DNA of 64,000 nucleotides from Dehalococcoidia bacterium (lineage in GTDB: Bacteria > Chloroflexota > Dehalococcoidia > Plut-88900): positions 2,944,001 to 3,008,000 of the forward strand of contig OZ240215.1 of the NCBI GenBank assembly GCA_965197585.1, given 5' to 3'. Below the pieces are notes generated by a model, which was not told where the DNA came from, did not search any database, and worked only from the letters and a program-made list of their open reading frames with translations. The translations under genes and the position numbers were made by a program. Numbering within the stretch: position 1 is the first letter of the stretch; each line of letters begins with the position of its first letter. Shown here piece by piece: positions 4,465-39,107 of the stretch.

Positions 4465-5112
4465 TTATTCAGTCCTCCTGAGGCGGGTCCTCCATAGGCG
4501 GATGTTCCCCGCCTATGACGGACTTGCAGCATATTCGATTGTGGGGGGGTGGGGTTTGCACTCTCTCTATTGGGTTTTGGGTAGGCGATGGAAGGTCCGG
4601 GACTCGGGCGCGGGGGGCGGGATACGAGCCTGGTTCAGCCCCGTGTTTCTGTGGATACGTGGCAGACAAGCGAGAGGGCCTTCGCTTGAGGGCATCTCTA
4701 CCACCAGTTTTGGCTGACCCACTCGGAGGGGTGGGGAGCACGTTTTCTCGCTGCCGTCGCTGGTTGTATGGGGGTCTCCGAAGGGAACGACGGGGGAGAT
4801 GTTTCCAAGGGCGTAAAGGCCCGAGGTGTTTGGCCCGGCGTGAGCGGGGCTCATTTGGGCAGGGCTCCTTTGAGGGGAGCGTGCCGCTTAAAATTGTGGA
4901 CCATCCATCGCCTTGGAGTCAGGGAAGGGGCACGGGACCCGGTGGGATGAGGAGATGGCGCCGTTTTCCGCCTGAGGCGGACGTACCGGCTTGTGCCGCG
5001 GACCTGCGCGAGGGCCGTTGGGATGGGCTGGGGCGTTGAGTCCTCTGTCGGGTCGGGTGGGCTTCCCTAGGTTTTTGGTTCCTCCTTGGTGAGTTAGGGT
5101 GGTGTTCGAACG
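4465..5112 (-). ncRNA. candidate large ncRNA, copy 1
   Basis: Homologous to the elements at 26.1-26.9 kb and 38.4-39.1 kb. Own promoter; helix 4584-4598/4898-4912; no credible ORF. Confidence 0.6.
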
Positions 5113-5118
5113 GTGAGT

Positions 5119-5147
5119 ATAATAGCACTAATGTTCACATGGGTCAA
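5119..5147 (-). promoter_or_regulatory. sigma70-type promoter of ncRNA copy 1 with LexA-like box
   Basis: TTGACC-17-TATTAT, with GAAC-atta-GTGC abutting the -10. Confidence 0.65.
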
Positions 5148-5174
5148 GGGGTTGGTGTCACACTTGGGAGAGGG

Positions 5175-5430
5175 ACACCGCCCCAGATTCCTCGCGGGGC
5201 ATCGGAATGACACGGGGAAAGGGGATCCGCCCCAGCCCCACAGGGGAACCCTCACCCCCTTAATCCCCCTCTCACGCCACAGGCGCACGCCCAGGCGCAT
5301 CTGCGACATCTTCGACCCTTAGAGCCTTCAAGGGAGAGGGCGAGATAAGAACAGAGGCCCACGTGCGTGCAGAGCACGCACGTGGGCCTCTAGTTCAGTA
5401 CTGGGGGGAAAGGGGATGGATTCCCGATCG
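5175..5430. repeat. composite REP/MITE block
   Basis: Collinear with 26917-27140. Contains aggcgcacgcccaggcgcatc…cgacc (also at 8431-8467) and a perfect 18-bp hairpin at 5353-5391. Confidence 0.75.
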
Positions 5431-5548
5431 GGGCGGGAGGGGGGAGAAGAAGGGCGTAATGGCAAAGGATGAGGTGGTATATGGGCAGGCGTTTTAGATC
5501 CCTCGCGGGGCATCGGGATGGGAAGAGGAGTCGGGGGTGAGGGTTCGG

Positions 5549-5577
5549 TTGACACTCCCATAGCGTGGACTTAACAT
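5549..5577 (+). promoter_or_regulatory. promoter of tRNA cluster
   Basis: TTGACA-17-TAACAT just upstream of tRNA-Val. Confidence 0.7.
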
Positions 5578-5615
5578 TTAGGCTGGTTAAAGGTGCGCCT
5601 TAGGCACTCGAGGCC

Positions 5616-5692
5616 GGGCGGTTAGCTCAGTTGGTTAGAGCGCTTGCTTCACACGCAAGAGGTCACTGGTTCGAGTCCAGTATCGCCCACCA
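5616..5692 (+). tRNA. tRNA-Val(CAC)
   Basis: Cloverleaf, anticodon arm cttgc-tt CAC ac-gcaag, TTCGA, CCA end. Confidence 0.97.
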
Positions 5693-5709
5693 TGAGGGTG
5701 CGGTTAAGG

Positions 5710-5796
5710 GCCGAAGTGGCGGAACGGCAGACGCGCTGCGTTCAGGGCGCAGTGTCCCACGAGGACGTGTGGGTTCAAATCCCACCTTCGGCACCA
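5710..5796 (+). tRNA. tRNA-Leu(CAG)
   Basis: ctgcg-tt CAG gg-cgcag, long variable arm, CCA end. Confidence 0.97.
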
Positions 5797-5858
5797 ACGC
5801 TTGGAAGGTCGGCATCGGCAGTTGAAATAGCGGACGGTAAAGTGTCTGCGACGAAGAT

Positions 5859-5935
5859 GCGCTTGTAGCTCAGTTGGATAGAGCGCTGCCCTGCGGAGGC
5901 AGAGGTCGTGGGTTCGAGCCCCGCCAAGCGCACCA
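5859..5935 (+). tRNA. tRNA-Arg(GCG)
   Basis: ctgcc-ct GCG ga-ggcag, acceptor gcgcttg/caagcgc, CCA end. Confidence 0.95.
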
Positions 5936-5950
5936 TTTCACCCGGGAATG

Positions 5951-6027
5951 GGGCGATTAGCTCAGTTGGTGAGAGCGCTTGCCTTACAAGCAAGAGGTCA
6001 CTGGTTCGAGTCCAGTATCGCCCACCA
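5951..6027 (+). tRNA. tRNA-Val(TAC)
   Basis: cttgc-ct TAC aa-gcaag, CCA end. Confidence 0.97.
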
Positions 6028-6099
6028 GGCCGAACCAGACCTTCTAGGTATAGTATATACACCCCTAAAACCCTATTGTTGAACCGCGAACGGGCAGAA

Positions 6100-6750
6100 A
6101 TGGGATTGCAGATGAGCAAACTGTATTGGACGAAAGGTCCGGCATATGTAAGTGTTTACTGGGCATCACCGCCATCTAAAGACATTGCACTAGAAGTGAT
6201 ACGTATCTTGGAAGAGTTTCGGTCTCAATGTCAGAGACTCTGGTTTGCGTTCGACGGTATGATGAATGGCCGCCCCCTAGCTGTTCAGCGCTTCAAAGAA
6301 ATGAATGGAAAGAGGGACAACAGGCTTTCTGTTGGGAACCAATTTCCTGATCAAGAACAGAGCATTGGGAATTCGACCATCGCCCAGATCAAATTCGGAG
6401 AGCTAGTTGACGCCATGGCTGAGGGCGGTGAGTTCGAACAATTAAATGCAAAGGCATATCTTGTGTTTATCGATGCCATTTGGGAGGACTCAGTGCGTAC
6501 AAGGATTGCGCAAATCCTCGAAGTTGAAGAGCGGGATGTCAAGTGTGATCTCTTGGCTGACCTACGACGTTTGCGAAACCTAGTACTTCACCGCAGTGAG
6601 AAAGCTAAGCAAGATTACTTGGAGAAGGCCACATTGCTGCCTCAGATTTGGGATGTGAATCCCGATGATGTGGTCATTACTACTTCTATGTTACATGCCT
6701 TGGTTGAGCAATTGAATGCAGTGCAAATTCATGTAGGTAAGGCGACTTGA
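6100..6750 (+). CDS. hypothetical protein with HEPN-like RxxxxH motif
   Basis: Low-GC ORF. Contains LRRLRNLVLH. The ORF-track extension over the tRNAs was trimmed. Confidence 0.6.
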   Translation: MGLQMSKLYWTKGPAYVSVYWASPPSKDIALEVIRILEEFRSQCQRLWFAFDGMMNGRPLAVQRFKEMNGKRDNRLSVGNQFPDQEQSIGNSTIAQIKFGELVDAMAEGGEFEQLNAKAYLVFIDAIWEDSVRTRIAQILEVEERDVKCDLLADLRRLRNLVLHRSEKAKQDYLEKATLLPQIWDVNPDDVVITTSMLHALVEQLNAVQIHVGKAT

Positions 6751-6905
6751 AGGCTGCCCGCCGTGTGCCGCCGAGATGGATCACATTTGTCCGAACTGCT
6801 GCGGGGAGACCTCGGAGGGGGTGAGGGGTGGGCATGAAGAGGTCCGATATCTTTTGATAGGCGATTGACTATCCCTTACACGAGTAAATAGAAGAGGATA
6901 TAGCC

Positions 6906-7835
6906 ATGACATGGCATAGAGCTATACCCGACGTCGACTCCTGGCAGCCTGCGGAGGGTAAGGACGACACACTTCGGAATTCGTTAATGGTCACGTGTCA
7001 ACTCGTACAGGCACGTATCGCTGCGCGGGCTGACGCTGAGATTAGGTTCAATATACGGAACTTTGATTCTGGCTCTGCATTGGAAGATATCGTACGCGAA
7101 GAATTGACCGACCTTCTTCCAAATCGCTATGAGGTCTCTGCGGGGGTAATCAACGATCGCATGGGACGCACGGCTGGCGACTGTGATTTGATTGTACGAG
7201 ACCCCAATTGGTCTCCTGTGATCAAAACTGGTGCAACCGGTCAGTCCCGACGGTTTCATTTCCCAATCGAAGGGGTGTATGCAGTAACGGAGATTAAACA
7301 AACTCTCGGGCGCAAAGAATTAGATGCAGCCATGAAAAAGTTAGTTATGGTTGCTAGGCTCGTGCGGCCAGAAAATCCCTACGGACATATAACCGAAAAT
7401 CAACACATTACTGATTTCGATAGGCCAGGTGCTACACTTAATCCCCTCCATACGACAATTTTCGCCACCAGACTTCCAAACCGTACCAAATTCGATGATG
7501 TTGTTAATCGCTTTGCAGAAATCAATGCTAAGCTGAGCCGAAAGGATATGGTGAAGATGCTTTGCGTGTTAGGGCATGGCACAGCTTGGTATTCAGTCGA
7601 GAGTGGTGATCCGTACAATGCGACGTACATGGCTGATGGAAACAGGCAATTAATAATGCAAATTAACCACAAAGAGCCTAAGAACTCTTTCTATCGCTAT
7701 TACGTGGAGATCTTGGGACACCTAACGCGCTCAGTGCTAAGGCTCCACGAAATATCGAACATTTATGGTGAGCCACCACCGCCTAGGGACACTCGATCCT
7801 TCCCAAAAGCTGCATTTAATGCAAACGGAGCATAA
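6906..7835 (+). CDS. DUF6602/NucC-like PD-(D/E)xK endonuclease
   Basis: G.ALEDIVREEL..LLPNRY…DCDLIV.D…PIEGVYAVTEIKQTL pattern, GAGGA SD, low GC. Confidence 0.7.
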   Translation: MTWHRAIPDVDSWQPAEGKDDTLRNSLMVTCQLVQARIAARADAEIRFNIRNFDSGSALEDIVREELTDLLPNRYEVSAGVINDRMGRTAGDCDLIVRDPNWSPVIKTGATGQSRRFHFPIEGVYAVTEIKQTLGRKELDAAMKKLVMVARLVRPENPYGHITENQHITDFDRPGATLNPLHTTIFATRLPNRTKFDDVVNRFAEINAKLSRKDMVKMLCVLGHGTAWYSVESGDPYNATYMADGNRQLIMQINHKEPKNSFYRYYVEILGHLTRSVLRLHEISNIYGEPPPPRDTRSFPKAAFNANGA

Positions 7836-8032
7836 TTGGAGGTGAAGAGTGCTAGGGCCTGTCGCTTTGTGGGGCCAAGAAAAGTTGCTTGATGGGCAGG
7901 CGTTTGAGATTCCTCGCGGAGCCTCGGAATGGGGGGGAACCTTGGGATGATGGGGAAGGGGGGCTTTCGGATGACAGGTGTCGGGGAGGGTGCTATAAAG
8001 GCGGGCGGGGCGCTTAGATAAGGGGAGGGCCA

Positions 8033-8431
8033 ATGGGTGAAGGGAAGATTTTCGACTGGGATGGGGTGGAACCGTTGCCTCCCGACGAGCGGTATCCGGG
8101 GGTAAGGGCAAGGGTGGTGGATGGGAAGAATATGCAGCTGATCTGGGCGGAGTTCCAGCCCGGCAGCTCCTATCCGCTCCACTCCCATGAGCGAGAGCAG
8201 TTCAGCTTCATGCTGAGCGGGCGGATGCGGCTAACGGTGGGGGACCAGGTATCGGAAATCGGGGCGGGGGATATGTGGTATGCGCCGAGCAACGTGGAGC
8301 ACGGGGGCGAAATTTTGGGTGACGAGCCGGTGGTATTTGTCGACGCGTACTCTCCTCCCCGCCCAAAAGCTCAAAGAGGGTGGAGAGCAGATGTCGGGGC
8401 AGTTGGGAATCGGGATAACCCTTCTGCCTGA
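8033..8431 (+). CDS. cupin domain protein
   Basis: PLHSHEREQ…GDMWYAPSNVEHG motifs. Confidence 0.9.
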   Translation: MGEGKIFDWDGVEPLPPDERYPGVRARVVDGKNMQLIWAEFQPGSSYPLHSHEREQFSFMLSGRMRLTVGDQVSEIGAGDMWYAPSNVEHGGEILGDEPVVFVDAYSPPRPKAQRGWRADVGAVGNRDNPSA

Positions 8432-8550
8432 GGCGCACGCCCAGGCGCATCTTCGACATCTCCGACCTTCCGCCTTAGGCGGACTGTAAGCGCGGGGCCT
8501 CGGGATGACAGTAAGTTGAGTCTTGGAATGATAAGTAAAGGGAGTCGGGT

Positions 8551-8937
8551 TTGTTGATTGTGTGGGTTGGGGCGGGGGGTGTGGTGGGGGCTGTGGCGCG
8601 CTACCTGGTGGTGGTTTGGCTCAATGGTGGGATGGGCGGGGTAGGGTTTCCGTATGGGACGCTGGCTGTGAACGGGGTGGGGTGTTTTCTTATCGGGCTG
8701 GTTGTGGGGTTTGCGGAGGCGCATAGGCCGCTGAGCCCCGAGGTCCAGGCATTCCTTGTCATAGGCGTTCTCGGGGGGTTTACGACGTTCTCGGCGTTCG
8801 GGATGGATACGATCAGGTTGTTCAGGGACCACGCCTACCTCGCAGGCTCGGCTAACGTGTTGCTGCAGGTGGCGGTGGGGCTGGGGGCGGTGGTGGTCGG
8901 GCTTCGGGTCGGGCAGGCGCTCAAGGCCGTGTGGTAG
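8551..8937 (+). CDS. crcB: fluoride channel CrcB/FluC
   Basis: GGVVGAVARY, FPYGTLAVN and GVLGGFTTFSAF motifs. Confidence 0.95.
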   Translation: MLIVWVGAGGVVGAVARYLVVVWLNGGMGGVGFPYGTLAVNGVGCFLIGLVVGFAEAHRPLSPEVQAFLVIGVLGGFTTFSAFGMDTIRLFRDHAYLAGSANVLLQVAVGLGAVVVGLRVGQALKAVW

Positions 8938-9101
8938 CCGAGGGTAAGGCGCCCACGAGTGACGCCCTTACGGGGGAAAGGAACAGGCCCCTCTCCAGAT
9001 TCCTCGCGGGGCCTCGGGCATGTTCGTTTGGGGAGCCTTGCCACGGACTGGGCCCTGGGCTAGAGTCGGGCTATGCATCCCTTGCGAGGAGGACTTTGGT
9101 G

Positions 9102-10325
9102 ATGATTGATGGTCGAGCGTTGGCGGAGGGGGAGGGGTGGGGGCCGGCTTTTTCTGCCGAGGAGTATGGGGATCGGGTCGAGAAGGTGCGTCGGGAGATG
9201 GGGTGCCGGGGAATCGACCTTCTGCTGGTCTCGTCGCCGCCCAACATCACATACCTGACGGGCTACGACATGATCTGGTACTACCTGACCAGCCCCGTGA
9301 GCGTAGCCGTTCACGCCGAATCCGGGCAGACACTATTCTTCGAGGTGCCTTATCATCAGCCGACCGTCGAGTGGCACGCGGTGGTCGACGATGCGGAGTA
9401 TTTCCGGGATGGGCTGTCTCCTGCCGAGTCGATAATCAGTGCGCTGAAGGGGCGGGGGTGGGTTAAGGGGAACGTGGGTGTCGAAGAGTGGAGCCGGGCG
9501 CCGAGCGGGGTGGTAATCAACGAGATAAAGCAGGGCCTGGCCGGTGCGGGCGCGAATGTCGTGGACGGATCGTGGGTCGTGGACCGGGTCAGGCTTATCA
9601 AGTCGGCGGCGGAGGTAGAGGTGATGCGGAAGGCGGCGTCCATAGCGGACAGGGCCATGGAGACGGTGCGCGGACACATTCGGCCGGGAGTAACGGAAAT
9701 CGAACTGGCAGGTGTCGTGCTGCAGGCAATGATGAAGGAGGGCGGCGGAGACCCAGCGATCCGCGCTGCGGTGAGGTCAGGGCCGAGGTTCGGGGCACGG
9801 CACTCGGCGCCCAGCCACCGGAAGCTGCAGCAAGGCAACCTGGTGTGGATCAACCACTGCGGGTCATATCATCGATACCACGCGGACCTGGGTCGGCTAT
9901 TCTCGCTGGGTGAGCCTTCGCGGAACTGGAGGTGGTTGATGGACAAGACGTGCGGGAGCGTCGATCACGTGATTTCGAAGGTGCGGCCGGGGGACCCCAC
10001 GGGAGTGGCTCAGAAAGCCATGGACGAGTACGTAGACTCGATGGGGCTGCGGCCCTATGTGGCCTACGTGAGCGGGTATAACATGGGGATTGCGATACCG
10101 CCGGATTGGGTCGGGCACACGTTTATCGACCCGGACACGGGCTTCGAGACAGCGAGCTACGATCCGGGCATGATCACGAACTATGAAAACCTGTTCACGG
10201 TTCTCGATTCCGACCCCGGCTGGAAGGGTGGCACGGGCGGCGGCTTCATCGAGACGATTCTGATGACCGACACGGGCCTCGAGACACTCTCAGGGTTGGG
10301 CAGGAACGTGACGGTTATCGAGTAG
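9102..10325 (+). CDS. M24 family (Xaa-Pro peptidase/creatinase-like) hydrolase
   Basis: Creatinase N domain (NITYLTGY), RLIKSAAE and RPGVTEIE motifs. GAGGAGG SD at ~9087. Confidence 0.85.
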   Translation: MIDGRALAEGEGWGPAFSAEEYGDRVEKVRREMGCRGIDLLLVSSPPNITYLTGYDMIWYYLTSPVSVAVHAESGQTLFFEVPYHQPTVEWHAVVDDAEYFRDGLSPAESIISALKGRGWVKGNVGVEEWSRAPSGVVINEIKQGLAGAGANVVDGSWVVDRVRLIKSAAEVEVMRKAASIADRAMETVRGHIRPGVTEIELAGVVLQAMMKEGGGDPAIRAAVRSGPRFGARHSAPSHRKLQQGNLVWINHCGSYHRYHADLGRLFSLGEPSRNWRWLMDKTCGSVDHVISKVRPGDPTGVAQKAMDEYVDSMGLRPYVAYVSGYNMGIAIPPDWVGHTFIDPDTGFETASYDPGMITNYENLFTVLDSDPGWKGGTGGGFIETILMTDTGLETLSGLGRNVTVIE

Positions 10326-10465
10326 GGTGGGGGGTAGGCCCAGCCCCAGATCCCTCCCGCCTCGGCGGACTTTCAGCACGGGGCCTCGGGATGACACGGT
10401 TGGGGGTGGGGGGATTCCCTGTACTATCGAGTGCAGGTAGAACAAGGCGGGATGGAAGGTGACCC

Positions 10466-24398: not shown

Positions 24399-26090
24399 CT
24401 ACTTCCTGCGGGGGGTGCCGCCCTTGCTGATCTTCCCCCAGGTGTCCCTGAGCGAGACCGTGCGGTTGAACACCGGCGATCCAGTCTCGGAGTCCGGGTC
24501 CACGGCGAAGTAGCCAAGCCGCTCGAACTGGAACCTTTCGCCCGGGAGGGCATCGGAGAGGCTTGGCTCGACCTTGGCGTCGGCGACGACTTCCAGCGAA
24601 TCGGGGTTCAGGGTCGAGAGGAAGTCTGCTTCCTCGTCGGGGCGCTCCGACGTGAAGAGGTGCTCGTACAGCCGGATCTCTGCCTCTACGGCGTGTCTAG
24701 CCGAGACCCAATGGATCGTGCCCTTCACCTTCCGGCCGTCGGGCGACTGTCCGCCGCGGGTCTTGGGGTCGTATGTGCAGCGCAGCTCGACGATCTCACC
24801 GGCGTCGTCCTTGACCACGTCGGTGCAGGTGATGAAGTAGCCGTAGCGCAGCCGGACCTCGCGCCCGGGGGCGAGGCGGAAGAATTTTTTCGGCGGGTCC
24901 TCCATGAAGTCGTTCCGCTCGATGTACAGCTCCCGGGAGAAGGGCACCTTGCGAGATCCCGCGCCGGGGTCTTCGGGGTTGTTAACGGCGTCAAGGTGCT
25001 CGACCTGCCCATCGGGGTAGTTTTCGATAACCACTTTGAGGGGCCTCAGGACGGCCAGCACTCGAGCCGCCCGCGTGTTCAGGTCGTCGCGGATGGCGTG
25101 TTCCAGCAGGGCGATTTCAATGACGTTCTGCCTCTTGGCAACCCCGACCAGATCGCAGAACCGGCGTATGGACTCCGGCGTATAGCCGCGCCTGCGAAGG
25201 CCGGCAAGGGTCGGCATCCGGGGGTCGTCCCAGCCGCTCACATGCCCCTCGTTGACGAGCTGGGCCAGTTTGCGCTTGCTCATCACGGTATGGCTCATAT
25301 TCAGCCGTGCGAACTCGATTTGCTGCGGGTGGTAGATGTCCAGGGCGTCGAGGATCCAGTCGTAGAGGGGCCGATGGTCCTCATACTCCATTGTGCAGAT
25401 CGAGTGGGTGACACCCTCCACGGAGTCGGATTGCCCGTGGGCGAAGTCGTACATGGGGTAGACCACCCACTTATCACCCGTGCGGTGATGCGGCGTCTTC
25501 AGGACCCGGTACAGAACGGGGTCCCGCATGTTGATGTTGCCGGAGGACATGTCGATTCTGGCCCGCAGGACTCGCTGCCCTTCGTTAACCTCGCCGTTCT
25601 TCATGCCTTCGAATAGGGCCAGGTTTTCCTCGACGGAGCGGTTCCTGTAGGGGCTCTCGACACCCGGCTCCGTGAGGGTGCCGCGGTATTTGCGAATCTG
25701 CTCCTGGTCCAGGTCGTCGACGTAGGCCTTGCCCTTGTTGATGAGGTCGATTGCGAAGTCGTAGAGCTTGTCGAAGTGGTCGGAGGCGAAGTAGAGGTGC
25801 TCGCCCCAGTCCCAGCCGAGCCAGCGGACATCCTCCAGGATGCCGTCGACGAACTCCTCCTCCTCTTTGGCGGGGTTGGTGTCGTCGAAGCGCATGTGGC
25901 AGCGGCCACCGTACTCCTGGGCCAGCCCGAAATTGAGGCACATGGACTTGGCGTGGCCGATGTGGAGGTAGCCGTTGGGCTCAGGCGGGAAGCGGGTGAT
26001 GACCTGTCCGCCGAACCGCCCGGAGGCGTTGTCGGCCTCGACGGCGGAGCGCACGAAGTCCAGGGAGGGTTTGGTTTCGGTTTCAGTCAT
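24399..26090 (-). CDS. glnS: glutamine--tRNA ligase
   Basis: [29 protein letters not shown] and FQFERLGYF motifs; TATAAT at ~26120-26125. Confidence 0.97.
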
Positions 26091-26146: not shown

Positions 26147-26856
26147 GATTCAGTCCTCCTGAGGCGGATCTTCGATTGTGGGGGTTTTGATTGTTTTGTT
26201 GGTAGGGGGTTGGCGATGGAAGACGTCCGTTGAGCCTGTCAGCCTCTACGCTCGTGCGGTGTTCCGGCTGTCGGGGGCCTAGAGGGTCCGCTCCGCGGGT
26301 GAGGAGGAGGGACTTGCAGCCGGCCGCACCCTAGCGCTCGATGGAGGGCTCCGACTGCCCGGGCAGACAGTCAGGCCTTGACCCCGCCTCTGAATGCCCG
26401 CAGGCATGATGGGGGCCAGTGATCGGGCAGTAGCCCCCTCAGATATCCTATGTTACGTGGGCCACCCGAGGGTCTAGGCGGCCCATCAGCCCCCTGCTTG
26501 ATATGGCGTAAGCTCGCAAGGCGGGCCAACCTCCGAGAGGTAGTCTCGGCCGGGGATAGCCGGTCCGCTACCCCATGCTTGATATAGCGTAAGCTCGCTG
26601 CTAACCGACCACCGAGACGGCGTCTCGGCGGGGTATGGCCGGTCCGCTATGGCTCTGTCCAGGGCGTCTTTCCATCGCCTGGGTAGGGAAGGGGCACGGA
26701 ACCCGATGGGATGAGGAGATGGCGATTGTCGCTTGAGCCGCGGGCCCCGTGTATGGGCCGTTGGGATGGGCTTGGGCGTTGAGTCCTCGGGTGGGTCGGG
26801 TGGGCTTCCCTGGGTTTTTGGTTCCTCCTTGAGATAGTTAGGGTGGTGTTCGAACG
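26147..26856 (-). ncRNA. candidate large ncRNA, copy 2
   Basis: Same leader and 3' tail (cacaatcgaa…ccgcctcaggaggactgaat) as copy 1; helix 26212-26228/26662-26679. Confidence 0.6.
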
Positions 26857-26892: not shown

Positions 26893-26916
26893 GGGGCTGA
26901 TTGCACACTTGGGGGG

Positions 26917-27140
26917 ACACCGCCCCAGCCCCACCGGGGAACCTTCACCCCCTTGATCCCCCTCTCACGCCACAGGCGCACGCCCAGGCGCATCTTCGAC
27001 ATCTTCGACCCTTAGGGCCTATAAGGGAGAGGGGGAGGGAAGAACAGAGGCAGATGTTGGCGCTTCTGCGCCAACGTCTGCCTCTAGTTCAGTACTGGAG
27101 AGAGGAGGGATGGATTCACGAAAGGGGTCGGGAATGACGG
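26917..27140. repeat. composite REP/MITE block
   Basis: Collinear with 5175-5430; hairpin at 27046-27085. Confidence 0.75.
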
Positions 27141-31735: not shown

Positions 31736-31759
31736 GACGTATTACAAGGGATAAAGAGG

Positions 31760-31792: not shown

Positions 31793-31910
31793 GTATGGGG
31801 GGGAATCACCCTCACCCTAGCCCTCTCCCATCGAGGGAGAGGGGACTGGACCTCCCCTCCGCCGCCAGGGATAAGGTTTATGCAGAGGACTCATCGAGTT
31901 AGAGAGATTA

Positions 31911-32246: not shown

Positions 32247-32433
32247 GGTCGGCCTCCCGAAAGTCTAGTGAACGCTCTTTTTCTTAGTAAAGCGCCTGCT
32301 CCGGCATTTGCCCGGGAGTGATGTGGCCTCCCAAGCTCTTTGCAGTATCCGAATTGGAGGAAGGCGTGCAATGTTTCCTCACTACTCCTGTCCGTAGGTG
32401 ATAGAGGATAGTAGGACAAAGGGAATTGGTCAA

Positions 32434-34155
32434 TCAGCGACGCCACTCGGCGATGTTCCAAAGCTCGCTGTCCCAGCCGTTGATATGCACTCCTTTTAGG
32501 GTGTCGGAGTGGGCGGAGACTATGCCTCGGTTCACCATGGGAATCTCGTAGTAGGCCTGGACCTGGATGTTGTTCATGCTCTTTATCAGGGCGGTGCGGT
32601 CGGGGCCGATGGGAGTGTGAGCAAGCTCTTCGACCAACTCGTCGAACTCCGGGTTGCAGGCCCGCGTGACGTTGCCACCGCCCCAGTTGTTGTCCCGGTC
32701 CGGGATTTCCTCGCAGGTAAGGCCTACGAGGTACTGCTGAGGGTCGATATCCGGGCCGGAGGCGTACATCTGGACGTCGGCGAAGAAGCGGCTGTAGAGG
32801 GCGTCCTTGTCGGCTACGGGATCGCCGCCGAAGTAGACGGCGGCGTCGTGGTGGAGTATTTCGGTCTCGATGCCGATCTGACTCCACCAGTCCTGGACCA
32901 GGAACTGGGTTTCTTGACGGATGTCATTGGTCGAGGTCTGGAAGGTGATTTTCAGGGGAACGCCATTGTATTCGCGGACGCCGTCTCCGTCGGAGTCGAT
33001 CACGCTGTTGTCGTCGAGGAGTTGGTTTGCAGCGCCGATGTCCTGGGTGAGGCAGCCGTCGTTTGCTGTAGAGACGTAGCTCGGGGGGCTGACGATGAGG
33101 TTGCAAGTAGGCTCGCCTGCGAAGCCGTAGAGCCGCTCGGATATCAAGCCTCGGTCGATGGCGAGGGACATGGCCTGGGGGATGGGAGCGAAGGCAAAGA
33201 AAAGATGGGGATTTGTGCCGTCCAGGTACTCGGAGCGGTCTTCTCCGAGGGTGGGGTCGGGGTTGGTCTGGTTGAGGACGATGCGCTCCACGAGGCTCGA
33301 GAATGCGGAGATGACCTTGCCATTGCCAGCGGCCTCCAATGTGGCGAGGGTCTCGGGGTCTATCTGGAGGTTCCAGGCGTAGTCGGCCTCGCCGTCTTCG
33401 AGGACAGATTTGGCCGCAGCAAGGGCCTCGCCGCCGCCCTTGAGAATGATGCGGTCGAAAAAGGGCTTGTCTCCATAGTAGTGGGGGTTGCGTTCGTAGA
33501 CGGCCAGTTCGTCAGGGGTGAACTCGACGATGCGGTAGGGGCCCGGGCCTAAGGGGGCGAAGTTCTCATCATCGCAGCCCGCGGCCGCGGCGCCGAAACA
33601 ATCGGCGAACTGGGCTTGACTGAGGACCGGGACCCCGGCCCCGACGAAGGGGACGTAGGGGTAGGGGGTGGGGGCGTGGAAGGTTATCTTGACGGTCGAG
33701 TCGTCCAGGGCCTCCACGGAAGTTATGTCAGCGAATGAACTGCTGGCGGTGCAACCTGTAGCTTCGTCGGTACAGTACCGCCAGGTGAAGACCACGTCAT
33801 GGGCGGTGAGGTCGCTGCCGTCGGACCACTTGAGGTCGTCCTTTAGGTTCCAGGTGATCGAGGTTAGGTCCTGGGAGATGCCGCTGTTCTGGAGGGTGGG
33901 TATGTCCTCGGCGAGGGCCGGGACAAGGGCGCCGTCGGGGTCGTAGTAAGCCAAGGGCTGGAGGGTGATGGCACCGGCGTCTCTGTCCTTGAACCCGCCC
34001 GAAAGGTAGGGGTTGGGGGTGGAGGGGGCCTGCCAATAGAGGATGGTGAGGGTCTCTTCCCCGCCGCATCTGAAACTCAGCAAGAGCACAAGGGCGACGA
34101 CTATCCCTACACCGCCAAGAACAACGCGTCTGCGTTTAAGAACATTTTCTACCAA
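32434..34155 (-). CDS. peptide ABC transporter substrate-binding protein (family 5)
   Basis: LKWSDGSDLTAHDVVFTW, GPGPYRIVEF and WNIAEW motifs. TTG start is inferred. Confidence 0.9.
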   Translation of the reverse strand: MVENVLKRRRVVLGGVGIVVALVLLLSFRCGGEETLTILYWQAPSTPNPYLSGGFKDRDAGAITLQPLAYYDPDGALVPALAEDIPTLQNSGISQDLTSITWNLKDDLKWSDGSDLTAHDVVFTWRYCTDEATGCTASSSFADITSVEALDDSTVKITFHAPTPYPYVPFVGAGVPVLSQAQFADCFGAAAAGCDDENFAPLGPGPYRIVEFTPDELAVYERNPHYYGDKPFFDRIILKGGGEALAAAKSVLEDGEADYAWNLQIDPETLATLEAAGNGKVISAFSSLVERIVLNQTNPDPTLGEDRSEYLDGTNPHLFFAFAPIPQAMSLAIDRGLISERLYGFAGEPTCNLIVSPPSYVSTANDGCLTQDIGAANQLLDDNSVIDSDGDGVREYNGVPLKITFQTSTNDIRQETQFLVQDWWSQIGIETEILHHDAAVYFGGDPVADKDALYSRFFADVQMYASGPDIDPQQYLVGLTCEEIPDRDNNWGGGNVTRACNPEFDELVEELAHTPIGPDRTALIKSMNNIQVQAYYEIPMVNRGIVSAHSDTLKGVHINGWDSELWNIAEWRR

Positions 34156-34174
34156 TGGCTTAAAACTCCGGTGA

Positions 34175-34618
34175 TTATTGTTTGGGACTGCAGTCGAAGG
34201 CCGGGTCCCGGCGCAGGAGCCGGATGCCGGTCGAGCCAAGGAGGAGGGGGAAGGTGGTGTCTATGAAAATCCATAACAGACCTATGTCGCCGGCGGGTTC
34301 CACCCACTGCGATGAAATCCAGTTCCAGAGGAGGGCGAGAAGCAGGAAGGCAGAGAAGTAGAAGGTAACGTTGGCCTCCAGGTATTCTCGGTCAATAGCC
34401 TTGTTGGAAGAACCTGAGTCTCGACGCAGCTTCGCGGAAGCGGCCAAGAGCAGTACTATGACCACGCCGGCAACCATTAGAGGGTTGAGCACATCCCAGG
34501 CTGTGGATGCCACGCCTTCCGATTTCGGGTCGTAGAAGAGAGTGGCGATGGAATTGACGGCCACGGCCGCGGCCACGAGGAGCATGTAGACGGCGGACAG
34601 AAGTTTTATAGCGCTCAT
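34175..34618 (-). CDS. 4-TM membrane protein, paralog of 60046-60507
   Basis: REYLEANVTFY…LWNW motif; GGAGG SD. Confidence 0.75.
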   Translation of the reverse strand: MSAIKLLSAVYMLLVAAAVAVNSIATLFYDPKSEGVASTAWDVLNPLMVAGVVIVLLLAASAKLRRDSGSSNKAIDREYLEANVTFYFSAFLLLALLWNWISSQWVEPAGDIGLLWIFIDTTFPLLLGSTGIRLLRRDPAFDCSPKQ

Positions 34619-34648
34619 AGATATTCCTCCTGTTAGCTAGCCGATATG

Positions 34649-34867
34649 TCAGGGCTTGAAGGCCAGGCACTCTCCGAAAGCCACTGCGCCCGAGGCTGCA
34701 GGGTTTGACTTCCACTCATCAAGGTCGGCGCGCCACTGGTCGAATTGTTCCTGGGTGGCGAGGCCGAACTTGATGGCTGCGCCAATGACCTGTGGCGAAA
34801 GAAACCAGCCAGTAGCGATGCCGTAGAAGAAGGCGATGTCCTTGGAGGTGTCGTCAGGCATTGTCAT
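34649..34867 (-). pseudogene. probable C-terminal remnant of a SAM-methyltransferase-type protein
   Basis: 72 aa ending GLATQEQFDQW…W…PAA…GECLAFKP; no SAM-binding motif. Confidence 0.4.
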
Positions 34868-34997
34868 TCGCTCCTAACGGGTGACTATGGCCAGAGCATA
34901 TTTTAGAACAGGGGGGTGGGGGGAGGCTATTGGGGGGTATGGTGTAGAATCGGATACTAGGCCACTTTTGACTCGGAGCCGAATGCGATTTGGGAAG

Positions 34998-36017
34998 ATG
35001 GTGATGAAAGAAAGACTAGCAACTGCGATAAAGGGCATCCGGTCCGATAAGAAAATCTCGACTTTGGATGAAAAGAGTACCAGGGCCGAAGTAATTGACC
35101 CAGTGTTGGAACGCCTAGGATGGGACAAATTTGGCGAAGACTTCGTGATTGAATATTCCGTGCCAGGCGGGGCGGTCGACTACGCTTTGCATGTCCGGAA
35201 TATGCCCAAGGTCTTCATAGAAGCAAAAAACCCAAGAGAAGATTTGCGTCGCCACGTAGACCAACTTGTCACCTACTGTGCAAAGCACGGAGTGCCATTG
35301 GCTGCACTTACGAACGGACTCAACTGGTGGTTCTACCTTCCACTGAAGGAAGGTACAGTCGAAGCGCGGCAATTCTGTCGACTGGACATATCAGTGCAGG
35401 ACATTTCAGAGATTTGTAATCGCCTAATCGAGTTCCTTGCCCGGGAGAACGTCTATTCGGGAGTTGCAGTCGAGAATGCCGAAGCCCACCTGCAACGGTT
35501 ACACGAGGCCAGGAATGTGGACAAGGCTCTGCCCCAAGCTTGGCAAGACCTCATTGCTGGACCGGATGACATGCTTGTAGAGTTGATCAACGAGAAGGTG
35601 GAATATCTGTGTGGCGTTAAAGCTGGAGCGAACCACATCAAAGAATTCTTGGTGGGCCTGAGCAGGCCGGCGCGTACGGTGAAACAGTCACCTAAATTTG
35701 AGAAGAAGGAACCGGCATACGTCGGCAGAACTGTGCGGATATCACCGCACCTGTCAGACCTTGCTTTGTCAAAACTGGACAATATCGAGGACAAGGAATT
35801 ACTGCACGCAAGACTCTCCAACATCGTTGAGCATTACGTCGACCCCAAATACGTCCGCGATCATGGCATCCGCGCCACCGTCAGGCAGCATATGACCAAT
35901 CGCGGATTCATTGAGTTTGAGATCCTGGCCGAATGGGGCGGAATCAAGTCAGACCACACCCGATTCTGCAAGATTGATATCTGCAATGCCAAACACGCAA
36001 ACAACCGACGGAAATAG
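34998..36017 (+). CDS. HsdR N-terminal-like restriction endonuclease domain protein
   Basis: E..TRAEVIDPVL..LGWD…EY…VDYAL…IEAK…QL..Y…LTNG..W.FY pattern. Confidence 0.85.
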   Translation: MVMKERLATAIKGIRSDKKISTLDEKSTRAEVIDPVLERLGWDKFGEDFVIEYSVPGGAVDYALHVRNMPKVFIEAKNPREDLRRHVDQLVTYCAKHGVPLAALTNGLNWWFYLPLKEGTVEARQFCRLDISVQDISEICNRLIEFLARENVYSGVAVENAEAHLQRLHEARNVDKALPQAWQDLIAGPDDMLVELINEKVEYLCGVKAGANHIKEFLVGLSRPARTVKQSPKFEKKEPAYVGRTVRISPHLSDLALSKLDNIEDKELLHARLSNIVEHYVDPKYVRDHGIRATVRQHMTNRGFIEFEILAEWGGIKSDHTRFCKIDICNAKHANNRRK

Positions 36018-36051
36018 TCTGCCTGCTCATACCACTACAAGGTACGGAACT

Positions 36052-36234
36052 ATGGCTAATTTCCAATACCAACGCTTAGTCTCGGATGAAAGCTCTGACG
36101 AATTTCCATTGCGCCCGGGGAGTATCGACACATCGATGCTCGGGGGATTAAAGGACAAGATTCCACCCGACCATCCGCCGTTCGACATCGACAGGTTTCG
36201 GGAGGAGGGGTATGACTCAGCGCTTCGGGATTGA
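36052..36234 (+). CDS. small antitoxin-like protein
   Basis: 60 aa; its end overlaps the start of the next gene. Confidence 0.4.
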   Translation: MANFQYQRLVSDESSDEFPLRPGSIDTSMLGGLKDKIPPDHPPFDIDRFREEGYDSALRD

Positions 36235-36796
36235 GGGCTCTGTCCTCACCTATGAGGACTACCGGAATACCACTGACGAGCAACGGTACGAATTGCTTGA
36301 TGGTGAGTTGGTTGTTCTCCCGACACCCAACATCGCCCATCAAGTGACTCTCGGTGACATATTCTGTGAACTCTATGACTTCCTGAAGGAGAAAAAGACG
36401 GGAGAGGCGTTTATGCGGGTGGCAGTAGTCCTCTCCGATACGAACGTAGTGGAACCCGACATCACCTTCGTATCGGCAAGCCGCATGGATATCGTAGAAA
36501 CCGATGACATCCGCGGCGCTCCCGACCTGGTCGTCGAGGTTATCTCGCCCTCCAATCCCGAGAGAGATTTGGTCAGGAAGCGGGACATTTACGCGCGGTA
36601 TGGAGTCGGAGAATATTGGATTGTGGACCCCGACGCCTGTTCGATCAGAGTGATGACGCTGGAAGGCAGCACATATAGCACAATCGGAGAGTATGAAGCC
36701 GGAGACCAATTGACCTCTCCTACTTTGAAAGGACTAGCGCTGGAGGTGGAAGACGTGTTCGCTGTGCCGGGTCGCCCTTCCGGGCAAGGGGCCTAG
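36212..36796 (+). CDS. Uma2 family endonuclease
   Basis: RYELLDG, EPDI, PDLVVEVISPS and YARYGVGEYWIVDP motifs. Confidence 0.93.
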   Translation: MTQRFGIEGSVLTYEDYRNTTDEQRYELLDGELVVLPTPNIAHQVTLGDIFCELYDFLKEKKTGEAFMRVAVVLSDTNVVEPDITFVSASRMDIVETDDIRGAPDLVVEVISPSNPERDLVRKRDIYARYGVGEYWIVDPDACSIRVMTLEGSTYSTIGEYEAGDQLTSPTLKGLALEVEDVFAVPGRPSGQGA

Positions 36797-36876
36797 GACG
36801 CTCGGGTGGCGGGGAGGGGCGGCGGGTGTATAATTCCCCCTATTGTTACGGGGACGGACAGTTAAGGAGGACTTAA

Positions 36877-38205
36877 ATGGCGAAGTCAAACGGGAAAACT
36901 TACGCAGGTGAGGATTTTGGCGACCTGAAGCAGGCGGCGATGGACCACCTGTGGATGCCCTTCAGCCAGTACAACGACCTGCTGAGCAAGGGCGGCCCGA
37001 AGATTATCGTCGAGGGCGACGGCATTCGGATGACGGACAGTGACGGGAACAGCTACATCGACGCGATCGGGGGGTTGTTCCTGGTCAACGTCGGGCACGG
37101 ACGTACGGAGATTGCGGAGGCAGTGGCCGACCAGCTTGGCGCTGTTCACTACGCCAACACCTTCGCATACCCCGCAGTCCCAACGATCAAGCTGTCGAAA
37201 AAACTGGCCGAGCTGGCCCCCGGGGACCTGGACAGGGTGTTCCTGGCCAGCGGTGGCTCTGAGGCGGTGGACACGGCGCTGAAGATTATCCGGCAGTACC
37301 ACGTGAACAACGGCGAGCCCCGACGGACCAAGTTCATCGCCCGCAGAGGCTCGTACCACGGGGTCAGCGTGGGCGCCCTGAGCATGAACAGCGCGGCCAA
37401 TGTGCGCCGGGACATCTGGGACCCGATGCTTATCGACACGAAGTTTGTTGGGGAGACGGCGGAGGACGTGGAGGAGATGATCAAGTTCGAGGGCCCCGAG
37501 ACCGTCGCCGGTTTCATCACCGAGCCGATCTCCGTGCCCAAGGGCATGAAGGTCCCCGATGACGACTACTGGCCCAAGGTCCGGGAGATCTGCGACCGGT
37601 ACGGCGTCCTGATGGTAGCCGACGAGGTGATCACGGGCTTCGGTCGGACGGGCAAGATGTTCGCCATGGAGCACTGGAACGTCACCGCCGACCTGATGAC
37701 CTTCGCCAAGGGCGTCACCAGCGGCTACCAGCCTGTCGGCGGCGTGATGGTGACCAACAAGGTCTACGACGCCTTCAAGGGTGACGCCGACAAGACGTTC
37801 ACCCACGGGTACACGTACTCGGGGCACCCGGCGGGGGCCGCAGCGGCCCTGGTCAACCTAGCGATCATCGAGGAAGAGGAACTGGTGCGGAACTCGGCGG
37901 AGACGGGGGCCTACCTGAAGGGCCAGCTGGAAACCCTTAAAGAGCACTCGATGGTGAGCGAGGTCCACGGGACCGGTCTGCTCCTGGGCATTGAGCTGCT
38001 GGAGGACAAGGCCACGGGCAAGCAGTTCGAAAAGGGCGCGCCGAAACTGAAGCAGCTGGTGCAGGAGCTGGAGGACCGGGGCATGCTGACCCGGACGGAG
38101 CCGTTCCTCTACATCGCCCCGCCCCTCACCCTGACCCGGGAAGAGGCGGACGAGATCGTGTCCATCATCGACGAGTCGTTGACGGTGGTTGAAAAAGAAG
38201 CCTAG
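36877..38205 (+). CDS. class III PLP aminotransferase
   Basis: SGGSEAVD, SYHG, DEVITGFGRTG and FAKGVTSGY motifs; GGAGG SD. Confidence 0.95.
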   Translation: MAKSNGKTYAGEDFGDLKQAAMDHLWMPFSQYNDLLSKGGPKIIVEGDGIRMTDSDGNSYIDAIGGLFLVNVGHGRTEIAEAVADQLGAVHYANTFAYPAVPTIKLSKKLAELAPGDLDRVFLASGGSEAVDTALKIIRQYHVNNGEPRRTKFIARRGSYHGVSVGALSMNSAANVRRDIWDPMLIDTKFVGETAEDVEEMIKFEGPETVAGFITEPISVPKGMKVPDDDYWPKVREICDRYGVLMVADEVITGFGRTGKMFAMEHWNVTADLMTFAKGVTSGYQPVGGVMVTNKVYDAFKGDADKTFTHGYTYSGHPAGAAAALVNLAIIEEEELVRNSAETGAYLKGQLETLKEHSMVSEVHGTGLLLGIELLEDKATGKQFEKGAPKLKQLVQELEDRGMLTRTEPFLYIAPPLTLTREEADEIVSIIDESLTVVEKEA

Positions 38206-38232
38206 CCGCCAGATTACATAGACCAAGCGCAG

Positions 38233-38275
38233 AGGGGCCGGTCCTCCTGAATGGGGGGGCGGCCCCTTGTTTTTT
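38233..38275 (+). terminator. intrinsic terminator
   Basis: aggggccg…cggcccct followed by a T-run. Confidence 0.7.
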
Positions 38276-38430
38276 GGGGCCCTCGCTGGACGTCATAGCG
38301 GGTGTTTTTGATTGACTCAATCAAAAGTTCGTGCCTGTATGATTGATCTGGGGAAGAAACCGGCGGTGTCGACCGGATTGAAGAGTGCGAAAGGGTGGGG
38401 GTGGGGATTCCGGCTCGGTGGAGAGGGTGT

Positions 38431-39072
38431 TTATTCAGTTGGGGTTTGGGGTTTTGGTTTGGTTTGGTTTGTTGGGAGGGACTGGCGATGGAAGGTCCGG
38501 GAGTGTTGGGCAGGGAGGCGGTTAGGCCTGTGCCGGTGCCTGTGGGCGTCGACTGCCTGCACAGGACAGCCCCTAGCTTCTGAGAGGATGTGGAGGGGAC
38601 CCGAGGGATTCTCGGTGTGGGGCGTCCCGACCACCAGAAGTGCTCGATCATGCGGAGGAATGGGAGCGTGACTCGAAGCCGCCGAGGGGTGCGCGTGCCT
38701 CTCCGAAGGAGTCGGCCTAGGGCACGATGGCCCCTAGCACAGCCCTGCAATAGGGCGGGATTTTTACATTTCGCTGGGATATGCGCATAGCGTTGACTCG
38801 AACGCGCCGGGTGAGTGATGCGTTGAATCGGGCTGGTCTCGCAAGCCTACATGCTGCTTAGAGTCGATGGACCTTCCATCGCGTGGTTGGTGGGGGAAGG
38901 GTGAGCCGGGGCCTTTGGTATGAGGAGGTGGCGGCTTTTGCTTGAGCCGAGGGGCGGCGTCTGGGCCGCCCTTTGGGATGGGCTTGGACGTTGAGTCCTC
39001 GGGGGCCGGGGATGTGGTTCCCCCTGGGTTGTGGTTCCTCCTTGGGTTTAGGGTGTGTGACGGGCCAGTCGA
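38431..39072 (-). ncRNA. candidate large ncRNA, copy 3
   Basis: Same leader motifs; perfect 14-bp helix 38485-38498/38869-38882; cUUCGg loop; convergent with the aminotransferase gene. Confidence 0.6.
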
Positions 39073-39077
39073 GGGTG

Positions 39078-39107
39078 AATATAGTACATGCGTTTTGATT
39101 TGGTCAA
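39078..39107 (-). promoter_or_regulatory. promoter of ncRNA copy 3
   Basis: TTGACC-18-TATATT, with AAAC-gcat-GTAC abutting the -10. Confidence 0.6.

Follow-up and report, generated by a model that had tools for sequence, protein, structure and literature searches.

A high-copy family of promoter-bearing, noncoding and predicted structured cassettes in one genus of uncultured Dehalococcoidia

RESULTS

Three cassettes in the window

The window analyzed here is a 64,000-nucleotide (nt) stretch from the genome of Dehalococcoidia bacterium (assembly GCA_965197585.1, contig OZ240215.1, positions 2,944,001 to 3,008,000), a single contig of 3,429,519 bp that we refer to as G000. Its minus strand carries three cassettes of the same build, in which a promoter is followed by a conserved leader, a long-range stem enclosing a variable core, and an A/C-rich tail; the first lies ahead of a gene for an S58 peptidase (3276-4265), the second lies ahead of glnS (24399-26090), and the third faces a convergent aminotransferase gene (36877-38205, plus strand). 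A preliminary description of the window had presented them as three paralogous, independently transcribed structured RNAs. We report that they belong to a family of 57 strong copies in this genome, a high-copy family of promoter-bearing, noncoding, predicted structured cassettes that looks new and looks restricted to one genus of uncultured Dehalococcoidia, and that its members are gained, lost and replaced as whole units between related genomes. The features of the three copies are given below, with bit scores from the leader covariance model and promoter scores as consensus positions matched out of 12.

Copy 1
5155..5163, minus strand: GTGTGACAC box, 5' edge of conservation in the consensus of 57 copies
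5119..5147, minus strand: promoter P1, TTGACC, 17-nt spacer, TGc-TATTAT; 10/12, TG present
4901..5088, minus strand: leader with AAGGAGG box, helices P1-P5 and invariant loop GAGGACTCAACG.CC.AGCCCATCCCAA; 166.1 bits
4584..4911 (arms 4911-4898 and 4598-4584), minus strand: long-range stem with 299-nt core of type T7
4465..4583, minus strand: A/C-rich tail with inserted hairpins and ACTGAAT end
4395..4464, minus strand: diverged 3' module GGCGAGCCACTAACCCACCGAACGAGTCCAC
4423-4395, minus strand: second promoter-like site, TTGAAC-17-TACAAT, ahead of the S58 peptidase gene

Copy 2
26908-26900, minus strand: upstream box GTGTGCAAT
26892-26863, minus strand: promoter P1, TTGACT, 18-nt spacer, TGc-TATTAT; 10/12
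26668..26831, minus strand: leader; 169.3 bits
26212..26679 (arms 26679-26663 and 26228-26212), minus strand: long-range stem, AGACG/CGTCT with a bulged A
inside the stem 26212..26679, minus strand: 434-nt core of type T4
26148..26211, minus strand: A/C-rich tail with ACTGAAT end, followed by glnS

Copy 3
39122-39115, minus strand: upstream box TGTGACAC
39107-39078, minus strand: promoter P1, TTGACC, 18-nt spacer, TATATT; 10/12
38872..39044, minus strand: leader of a subtype in which helix P1 is GGGGGAA/TTCCCCC and the P4 hairpin is longer; 124.1 bits
38484..38882 (arms 38882-38869 and 38498-38484), minus strand: long-range stem with 370-nt core of type T5
38431..38483, minus strand: A/C-rich tail with ACTGAAT end
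38376-38360, minus strand: terminator-like hairpin with T-run, 55 nt beyond the tail

Reading of the sequences confirmed the positions and strand of all three copies, together with most of the anatomy that had been proposed for them. The TTGAC-17/18-TA..T promoters each match 10 of 12 consensus positions, where shuffled sequences are expected to hold 0.2-0.3 such sites, and the leader was recognized in each copy (166, 169 and 124 bits). The long-range helix GCGATGGA.../...TCCATCGC is present throughout, with arm starts 319, 458 and 390 nt apart and an inner part that covaries as described (copies 1 and 3 have GGTCC/GGACC; copy 2 has AGACG/CGTCT with a bulge of 1 nt), and the tails end in ACTGAAT at 4473-4467, 26154-26148 and 38439-38433. 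Core lengths of 299 and 370 nt were as given, whereas the core of copy 2 measures 434 rather than 433 nt. The TATAAT that had been attributed to glnS itself lies in a conserved hairpin, but our scan found no -35/-10 promoter there. The leader of copy 1 contains an additional hairpin inserted in helix P5, and its core clusters in a six-copy type with those at 1452109, 1598310, 2526806, 3162536 and 3412324.

Family size and distribution

A hidden Markov model of the leader, built from the three window copies, was used in an nhmmer scan of G000, with matches above 100 bits taken as strong. The scan returned 61 leader matches, 57 of them strong, so that the set of paralogues is far larger than the three of the preliminary description. 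A tail could be paired with 46 of the 61 leaders (45 of the 57 strong ones), giving cassettes of 566-858 nt, or approximately 0.57-0.86 kb; no leader-tail pair defined a cassette longer than 858 nt. The limits of the cassette were also drawn too narrowly before, as conservation begins approximately 15 nt 5' of the -35 hexamer and in at least 25 of the 57 copies extends approximately 45 nt beyond ACTGAAT.

A covariance model of the leader (R1) was then searched against G000, eight congeners and genomes of three sister genera of the same family. It returned 58 matches in G000 and 39, 42, 71, 41, 43, 52, 23 and 54 in the congeners, a range of 23-71 per genome, and none in the genomes of the three other genera. 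When a class-wide sample of 151 genomes was searched, the model matched only 6, all of the same genus; the 145 remaining genomes gave no leader match, a result that covers the genomes searched and not absence elsewhere. In an exact-pattern scan of one genome per species, all of the matches listed were metagenome-assembled genomes of Dehalococcoidia bacterium. Viral contigs and phage and plasmid collections yielded no leader match, and a metagenome collection yielded five short contigs. A limited full-text literature search found no description of such elements in Dehalococcoidia, which is a thin basis for novelty.

The superfamily exceeds these model counts because core modules also occur at approximately 12 further loci where the match to the leader of this family (leader A) is weak or missing; part of the copy 3 core, for example, recurs at approximately 10 loci without a leader-A match. 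In G000, such leader-poor, core-sharing loci lie at the following positions:

63435
505143
1118366
1446132
1578348
2280503
3022441
3034674
3062585
3315803
3386320

A corresponding locus in genome G004 (L118:3650-4500) lies upstream of glnS. The element there, which we call family B, combines a CATCCCAACG-like motif and the stem GAATGGAAGGTCC.../...GGACCTTCCAC with a promoter-like site of its own.

Promoter, Shine-Dalgarno-like box and 3' end

The 57-copy consensus shows a sharp onset of conservation at the GTGTGACAC box, which is found with no more than 2 mismatches in 50 copies, approximately 15 nt upstream of the -35 hexamer. The promoter matches at least 9 of 12 consensus positions in 56 of the 57 copies, with a spacer of 17-18 nt in 56, and the -35 hexamer is TTGAC followed by C, T or A in 55. 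Every copy (57/57) carries AAGGAGG 29-40 nt past the -10 hexamer, which would place it approximately 22-33 nt into the predicted transcript. This heptamer is perfectly complementary to the 3' end of the 16S rRNA of G000 (...GGATCACCTCCTT, that is, ...CCUCCUU) and thus resembles a Shine-Dalgarno (SD) sequence, but none of 95 leaders has a start codon (ATG, GTG or TTG) 4-13 nt after it.

At the other end, C makes up on average 39% and G 12% of the first 60 nt of the tail, and a gene for Rho is encoded in G000. A scan for intrinsic terminators after the tails found none in copies 1 and 2. At least 25 of the 57 copies carry a 3' module, GGTGTGTCACTAAYCTACCGAACGAGTACA, with which conservation continues for approximately 45 nt past ACTGAAT and which often ends in an outward-facing TTGAC; of the 25 matches to this module across the genome, 24 follow a cassette and the remaining one follows a degenerate cassette. 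TTGNN occurs 4-13 nt after the module in 14 of the 25, and in several copies this TTGAC supplies the -35 hexamer for a second promoter before the gene, as in TTGACA-17-TATAAT at 671189. A promoter-like site (at least 9/12) stands between tail and gene in 23 of the 45 copies that have a co-oriented downstream gene.

Predicted RNA structure and covariation

The anatomy of the leader was derived from minimum-free-energy folds of three copies and a 48-sequence MAFFT alignment. A 5' region that contains CAAGGAGGAACCAAAA is predicted to be single stranded and is followed by a closed domain of five helices. P1 is AGGGAAG/CUUCCCU or, in the copy 3 subtype, GGGGGAA/UUCCCCC, the exchange of pairings to which the preliminary description had drawn attention; P2 is CAC...GACCC/GGGUC...GUG, and P3 is GAGGA/UCCUC. 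P4 is a variable hairpin (GGCC/GGCC, also GGUC/GACC, ACCU/AGGU and longer variants), and P5 (GGC/GCC) accepts inserted hairpins of 22-45 nt. A 27-nt stretch, GGACUCAACG.CC.AGCCCAUCCCAA, is predicted to be unpaired and is invariant in 48 of 48 diverse leaders.

Covariation above controls was found in both the leader and the long-range stem. In the MAFFT alignment, 93.4% of helix cells are paired, and 46 cells carry changes on both sides of the pair, against 10.3 in shuffles. Among 105 leaders aligned to the covariance model, and hence in an alignment fitted to that model, 94.1% of cells form pairs, a share that falls to 87.8% in shuffles and to no more than 59% if the partners are slid, and there are 147 double-change cells against 34.2 (a figure reached by 0 of 500 shuffles), with compensatory changes at 13 of the 27 leader pairs. 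In an alternative fold returned by RNAalifold, the UCCUC of P3 is taken up by the AAGGAGG box, so that two GAGGA boxes compete for one partner; sequence variation among the leaders does not discriminate between the two folds.

The long-range stem consists of 9 invariant base pairs followed by GGUCC/GGACC or by AGACG/CGUCU with a bulged A, for a total of 15-25 bp. In 100 of 120 distinct elements, its inner arm pairs better with its own partner than with the mean of ten foreign partners, the mean duplex energy being -16.9 kcal/mol with the own partner and -12.8 kcal/mol with those of other copies. A consensus fold of nine T4 cores from several genomes contains 121 predicted pairs, 11 of which show compensatory changes. 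We also folded both strands of 28 randomly chosen elements and compared each with 8 dinucleotide shuffles: the mean folding excess over shuffles was -20.9 kcal/mol for the sense strand and -14.0 kcal/mol for the antisense strand, and the sense excess was the larger in 24 of the 28 (sign test, P = 1.8e-4). The sense strand is composed of 37.4% C, 24.6% G, 21.7% A and 16.3% T. We take the difference in folding excess as moderate support for an RNA read from the promoter strand.

The preliminary description could assign the cassettes to no RNA family, and comparison with Rfam 15 (4,227 models) at gathering thresholds likewise found only five tRNAs in the whole window. Scans of the three copies by E value yielded no credible match: the best ones inside an element were Twister-sister (E, 7.4) and sR60 (E, 7.7), and copy 3 had none at an E value of 1 or below.

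Coding potential

The cassettes are noncoding, in agreement with the earlier remark that no open reading frame (ORF) is conserved among them. Frames anchored on conserved leader positions are open in just 38, 51 and 42 of 95 leaders, so that none is open in most copies, and the spacings between anchors vary by 1-2 nt rather than by multiples of 3. Open frames as such are common because the A/C-rich sense strand has few stop codons; some fully open frame is present in 89% of leaders. None of the 57 copies is overlapped by an ORF that reaches 90 amino acids and has gene-like codon usage, and no Pfam family was matched by the longest ORFs that cover the copies in the window.

Genomic context

Gene context was taken from a crude self-trained gene call. 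All 57 cassettes are intergenic, and the downstream gene is co-oriented in 45 (binomial P = 1.3e-5), for most at a distance of approximately 20-250 nt, with the tail ending 70-260 nt before most genes; the other 12 face a convergent gene. The 45 downstream proteins contain 82 Pfam families and show no functional theme: the commonest family, Amidohydro_2, occurs in 8, and GlnRS, LeuRS, transporters, oxidoreductases and others occur 1-3 times each. Two cassettes, at 1530652 and 2399680 of G000, lie directly upstream of tRNA genes. Thirty-nine cassettes are on the plus strand and 18 on the minus strand, the latter clustering at 2.68-2.98 Mb, a region that includes the window; the cumulative GC skew is lowest near 2.65 Mb and highest near 1.06 Mb, and no simple relation of cassette orientation to the replichores was seen.

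Further possibilities were tried and set aside. For cores acting as antisense guides, 32 outside loci were matched, 25 of them intergenic and the other 7 within crude ORF calls overlapping different repeats, and no match to a bona fide gene was obtained at an E value of 1e-6 or below. For a trans target of the invariant loop, a genome-wide search for complements of at least 11 nt gave scattered, chance-level matches only. For an origin from the rRNA leader, the weak leader match at 684507 proved to lie upstream of a 462-amino-acid ORF and not directly upstream of the 16S gene, and the 16S flanks share with the tail just the 11-mer ACAACTGAATA (blastn-short E values, 0.7-2.7). The predicted 16S processing stem includes this 11-mer from the end of the tail in its 5' strand (G000 681808; L175, approximately 2300-2320, minus strand); the 11-mer occurs 11 times genome-wide, 8 of these in cassette tails, and may be shared by chance.

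Exchange of cassettes and cores among loci

Genomes were compared at single loci. G000, G005, G001 and G008 have a cassette ahead of glnS, G007 retains a leader with an internal deletion, and G004 has a much more divergent relative; the type of core varies among the species, and the gene-proximal 50 nt with the TATAAT hairpin are conserved. Eighty-four foreign elements could be placed in G000 by their downstream flank, and G000 has a cassette at the same gene in 54 cases and none in 30. Two of these 30 loci were inspected; in both, a mosaic intergenic block seems to have been replaced as a whole or to be absent, and the picture is not that of a clean insertion.

Of the 54 shared loci, only 6 had the orthologous leader as their best-matching leader in G000. 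Six locus pairs were profiled, and in four the core could not be aligned; both flanks are approximately 97-100% identical in three of these, the downstream flank alone is conserved in the fourth (L072), and the leader is partly changed as well in at least three. In the best example of replacement, similarity ends just past the GTGACA box at the 5' edge and resumes at CTGAA. The cassette itself is therefore the unit of exchange.

The 57 cores fall into seven clusters (12, 10, 7, 6, 6, 6 and 6 copies) and four singletons, and all seven types recur at loci of other genomes; paralogues of one type are approximately 72-89% identical. The T4 core of copy 2 contains an internal tandem duplication of approximately 80 nt (AGCGGACCGGC...CGAGCTTACGC.ATATCAAGCA; approximately 26490-26650, minus strand), which is also present in the orthologous G005 copy and in other T4 cores. 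The strongest inverted repeat of the cassette, of 15 bp, is internal and flanks the core rather than being terminal; a short inverted motif of 7-8 nt (GTGACAC at the 5' edge and GTGTCAC in the 3' module) exists only in the 25 of 57 copies that bear the module.

DISCUSSION

Weighing the explanations

Much of what had been proposed for the three window copies holds for the family at large: the cassettes are noncoding, have their own promoters, show covariation and a sense-strand folding excess, and match no Rfam family. What does not hold is the picture of a three-member set of RNA genes, for which a repeat family of approximately 57 copies, confined in our searches to one genus and gained, lost and replaced as whole cassettes, has to be substituted. 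Such gain, loss and replacement mean that a recombining or mobile cassette fits the data at least as well as independently selected trans-acting RNAs do. We put at about an even chance the reading that these are recombining mobile promoter/leader cassettes, in which RNA is made and its fold matters but which act locally and are not 57 trans-acting RNA genes. The promoter of each cassette would drive synthesis of a structured, C-rich RNA, in which, by analogy with known systems, the AAGGAGG box may serve as a ribosome-binding 5' stabilizer, the long stem as a site of double-strand-specific processing and the C-rich tail as a loading site for Rho. Recombination through the conserved ends would spread the cassette and exchange it among gene-upstream sites, and the effect on the host would be local, either strong transcription toward the downstream gene or the donation of a -35 hexamer to the promoter of that gene. 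A role in cis, as a 5' leader or promoter donor, is conceivable because the gene that follows is co-oriented in 45 of the 57 copies and intrinsic terminators are not a general feature of the family.

Several observations weigh against this reading. We infer the start site, 3' end, processing and read-through of the cassette from sequence, and a structured RNA of 0.6-0.8 kb far exceeds the need of a promoter donor. Downstream genes appear independent of the cassette because approximately half have a promoter-like site of their own and because two loci without a cassette retain the gene-proximal region. The copies are old, with no recent burst, because identity within a core type is just 72-89%, and simple homologous gene conversion among old copies could have caused the replacements. 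No recombinase, transposase or reverse transcriptase linked to the cassettes was found, and a search for an autonomous parent, in the form of inverted-repeat pairs 700-6,000 nt apart, showed no peak. Nor was there a clear target-site duplication: for the 50 copies compared, cognate flanks had a longest common k-mer of 3.96 on average, against 3.37 +/- 0.20 in permuted flanks, and the shared k-mers ranged from 3 to 7 with no fixed length, in a comparison for which the 3' edge is imperfectly detected. As to the fold, shuffle controls overstate the significance of the covariation because the sequences are related and, for the 105 leaders, because the alignment was fitted to the model; the covariation is found mostly in P4, P1 and P2, where it is clear all the same, and P3 and P5 hardly vary. 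A comparison of G:U with A:C in the leader helices gave no strand signal, either in the model alignment (40 versus 74) or in the MAFFT alignment (29 versus 43), which is partly attributable to register shifts and to the C-rich composition.

The same body of data may be read in other ways. If each cassette were an RNA gene of a trans-acting large noncoding RNA (ncRNA) family, with the leader scaffold binding a common partner (a protein, or the 30S subunit through AAGGAGG), the seven cores providing seven specificities and Rho ending transcripts at the tail, then the near-consensus promoter in 56 of 57 copies, the invariant unpaired stretch in 48 of 48 leaders, the covariation of leader and long stem, the larger sense folding excess in 24 of 28 elements, the maintenance of seven core types across species, and the C-rich, G-poor tail in a genome with a Rho gene would all find a place, as would the promoter-like sites that 23 of 45 downstream genes have of their own and the 12 copies that face convergent genes and therefore cannot be 5' untranslated regions. 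We nevertheless consider this possible rather than probable: 6-12 copies per core type per genome are hard to explain, the co-oriented bias (45/57) speaks for a role or a constraint that is local, loss or replacement of a cassette at a given locus has no visible consequence, the invariant loop has no complementary target of at least 11 nt beyond chance level, and the cores match no coding genes, their 32 external loci comprising 25 intergenic sites and 7 crude ORF calls. In a selfish repeat acting at the level of DNA, nonautonomous in the manner of MITEs (the miniature inverted-repeat class of transposable elements), the inverted repeats and hairpins would serve transposition or recombination, and the promoter would be incidental or an outward promoter in the style of insertion sequences. 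High copy number within one genus, strictly intergenic placement, gain and loss between species and discrete subfamilies are in keeping with this, as are the 15-bp inverted repeat around the core, the inverted GTGACAC/GTGTCAC motif of the module-bearing copies and the finding that G:U is no commoner than A:C. Full sigma-70 geometry with an SD-like box at a fixed distance in 57 of 57 copies is, however, unneeded for transposition of DNA, the strand asymmetry of folding favors an RNA of the promoter strand, the 32 of 57 copies that lack the 3' module have no good terminal inverted repeats, and, given also the old paralogues (approximately 72-89% identical within a core type), the missing autonomous partner with the same inverted repeats and the lack of a clear target-site duplication, we judge such an origin unlikely.

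Two further explanations are both unlikely. A common cis-regulatory leader, whether a riboswitch or T-box-like element or a processive antitermination RNA, that controls read-through into some 45 genes as a regulon would agree with the co-orientation and proximity (approximately 20-250 nt for most) of the next gene in 45 of 57 copies, with the lack of an intrinsic terminator after the tails of copies 1 and 2, with the competition of two GAGGA boxes for one UCCUC in alternative folds and with an invariant loop that could form a binding pocket. Its likelihood is nonetheless slight, in that the downstream genes have no common function, 12 copies face convergent genes, glnS carries different cassette types according to species and an internally deleted leader in G007, other genes lack a cassette altogether in G000, no expression platform lies beside the start codons (the tail ends 70-260 nt before most genes, many of which have their own promoter-like site), and no riboswitch or leader in Rfam is matched. 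Hidden peptide genes, for which AAGGAGG would be a real ribosome-binding site before a small ORF with an unusual start codon, are suggested by the perfect SD complementarity in 57 of 57 copies and by the scarcity of stop codons on the sense strand, which leaves some open frame in 89% of leaders; they are rendered highly improbable by the absence of ATG, GTG or TTG 4-13 nt past the box in all 95 leaders, by anchored frames that are open in only 38, 51 and 42 of the 95 and whose anchor spacings vary by 1-2 nt, and by the lack of a Pfam match for the longest overlapping ORFs and of any gene-like ORF of at least 90 amino acids over any copy.

Comparison with known systems

The closest described category, as set out by Nijveen, Matus-Garcia and van Passel (2012, PMC3575422), is that of the putative mobile promoter, a promoter-bearing dispersed repeat for which Correia elements, ERICs and REPINs are named. 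In common with putative mobile promoters, the cassettes are highly similar, promoter-containing intergenic sequences that are reused before unrelated genes, are noncoding and multicopy, and are gained and lost between relatives. Fifty-six of the 57 copies have a promoter site of at least 9/12, and the downstream genes are not homologous (82 Pfam families among 45). Whereas Correia elements, ERICs and REPINs are roughly 30-150 bp long, the cassettes measure 0.6-0.8 kb, with a covarying multihelix leader and a stem-enclosed core in seven types, and their promoter points into the element itself and not solely outward. With MITEs they share noncoding sequence, a length below 1 kb, many intergenic copies, subfamilies, internal inverted repeats and strong predicted hairpins; they differ in the lack of clear terminal inverted repeats in 32 of 57 copies, of a clear target-site duplication and of a parent transposon in our searches, and in the age of the copies, most of which keep their synteny from one species to another.

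Large structured bacterial ncRNAs such as OLE, GOLLD, ROOL, HEARO and raiA typically occur in one or few copies per genome. The cassettes resemble them in being noncoding, several hundred nucleotides long and built of several helices with invariant loops, and in belonging to an uncultured, environmental lineage; the leader, the long stem and the T4 core all show covariation of the kind expected of structured ncRNAs in general. Unlike them, the cassettes match no Rfam 15 model, have 23-71 matches per genome and carry interchangeable cores. An rRNA operon has a strong sigma-70 promoter, a leader, a long-range helix flanking the RNA body (the RNase III stalk) and a spacer, and the cassette has its parts in the same order, but it encloses a variable core of 300-500 nt and has no significant similarity to the 16S flanks. 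The STAB-SD of Bacillus cryIIIA is a 5' mRNA stabilizer; the cassettes likewise have a perfect SD-like sequence near the predicted 5' end of the transcript, with no start codon after it, that could bind the 16S 3' end, a likeness of sequence and position alone in an unrelated organism. Riboswitches and T-boxes find no counterpart in a family whose downstream genes are unrelated in function, of which 12 of 57 copies are convergent with the next gene and which has no platform beside the genes, and no conserved ORF with a start codon links the family to protein-coding elements.

To our knowledge, no bacterial ncRNA or repeat family with an organization of scaffold and swappable core has been described. 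It is tempting, if doubtful, to see in the cassettes a new class of RNA element: a promoter-driven RNA of approximately 0.7 kb, with a universal scaffold (AAGGAGG box, five-helix leader with its invariant 27-nt loop, and closing stem) and a plug-in domain drawn from a small, conserved set of some seven types, present at 23-71 model matches per genome and actively shuffled among loci. The scaffold would recruit a partner shared by all cassettes, either the ribosome or a protein specific to the genus, and the core would set the action at each locus. If the cassettes are transcribed as predicted, approximately 40-70 of the strongest-looking promoters of each genome would drive the family, which would be among the most copy-rich large RNA families known in bacteria and would constitute a natural system of a conserved RNA scaffold carrying exchangeable structured domains. 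On the same condition, approximately 1% of each genome in the genus would be given over to one large structured RNA family. On the more sober reading, as recombining promoter/leader cassettes, they show how the intergenic regions of uncultured Dehalococcoidia are rebuilt in a modular fashion, and how unrelated genes, and tRNA genes as well, come to share promoters and outward -35 boxes through redistribution. With the covariance model and the anatomy described above, the question can be put directly to the test.

Other repeats and neighboring genes

The cassettes are found in the company of smaller repeats. A mini-hairpin of approximately 22 nt, GGAAC(A/G)TCCGCCTnnGGnGGA, is inserted in leader P5 of copy 1 (approximately 4955-4985) and occurs one to two times in tails; it is present in the tails of many copies, such as those at 671189 and 1190546 of G000, and behaves like a tiny repeat that moves independently. 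G-rich hairpin repeats resembling REP elements (CCCCCTCTCCC...GGGAGAGGGGGATCAAGGGGGTGAGGGTTCCCC) lie just upstream of many cassettes (in the window at 5165-5300 and 26905-27050, minus strand), and dozens of sites in G000 hold exact copies 26-31 nt long. The intergenic regions of the genus look like mosaics of several such repeat modules.

Near copy 3, an ORF for an IS481-type transposase (rve, HTH_32 and LZ_Tnp_IS481 domains; 39250-40377, plus strand) points away from the cassette. Its start lies approximately 140 nt upstream of the copy 3 promoter, and the apparent left end of the element lies approximately 35 nt from the -35 hexamer; it has ends of its own and no general association with the cassette family. 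A cluster of four tRNA genes (5616-6024, plus strand) diverges from copy 1, and a single tRNA gene (40704-40776, plus strand) lies near copy 3.

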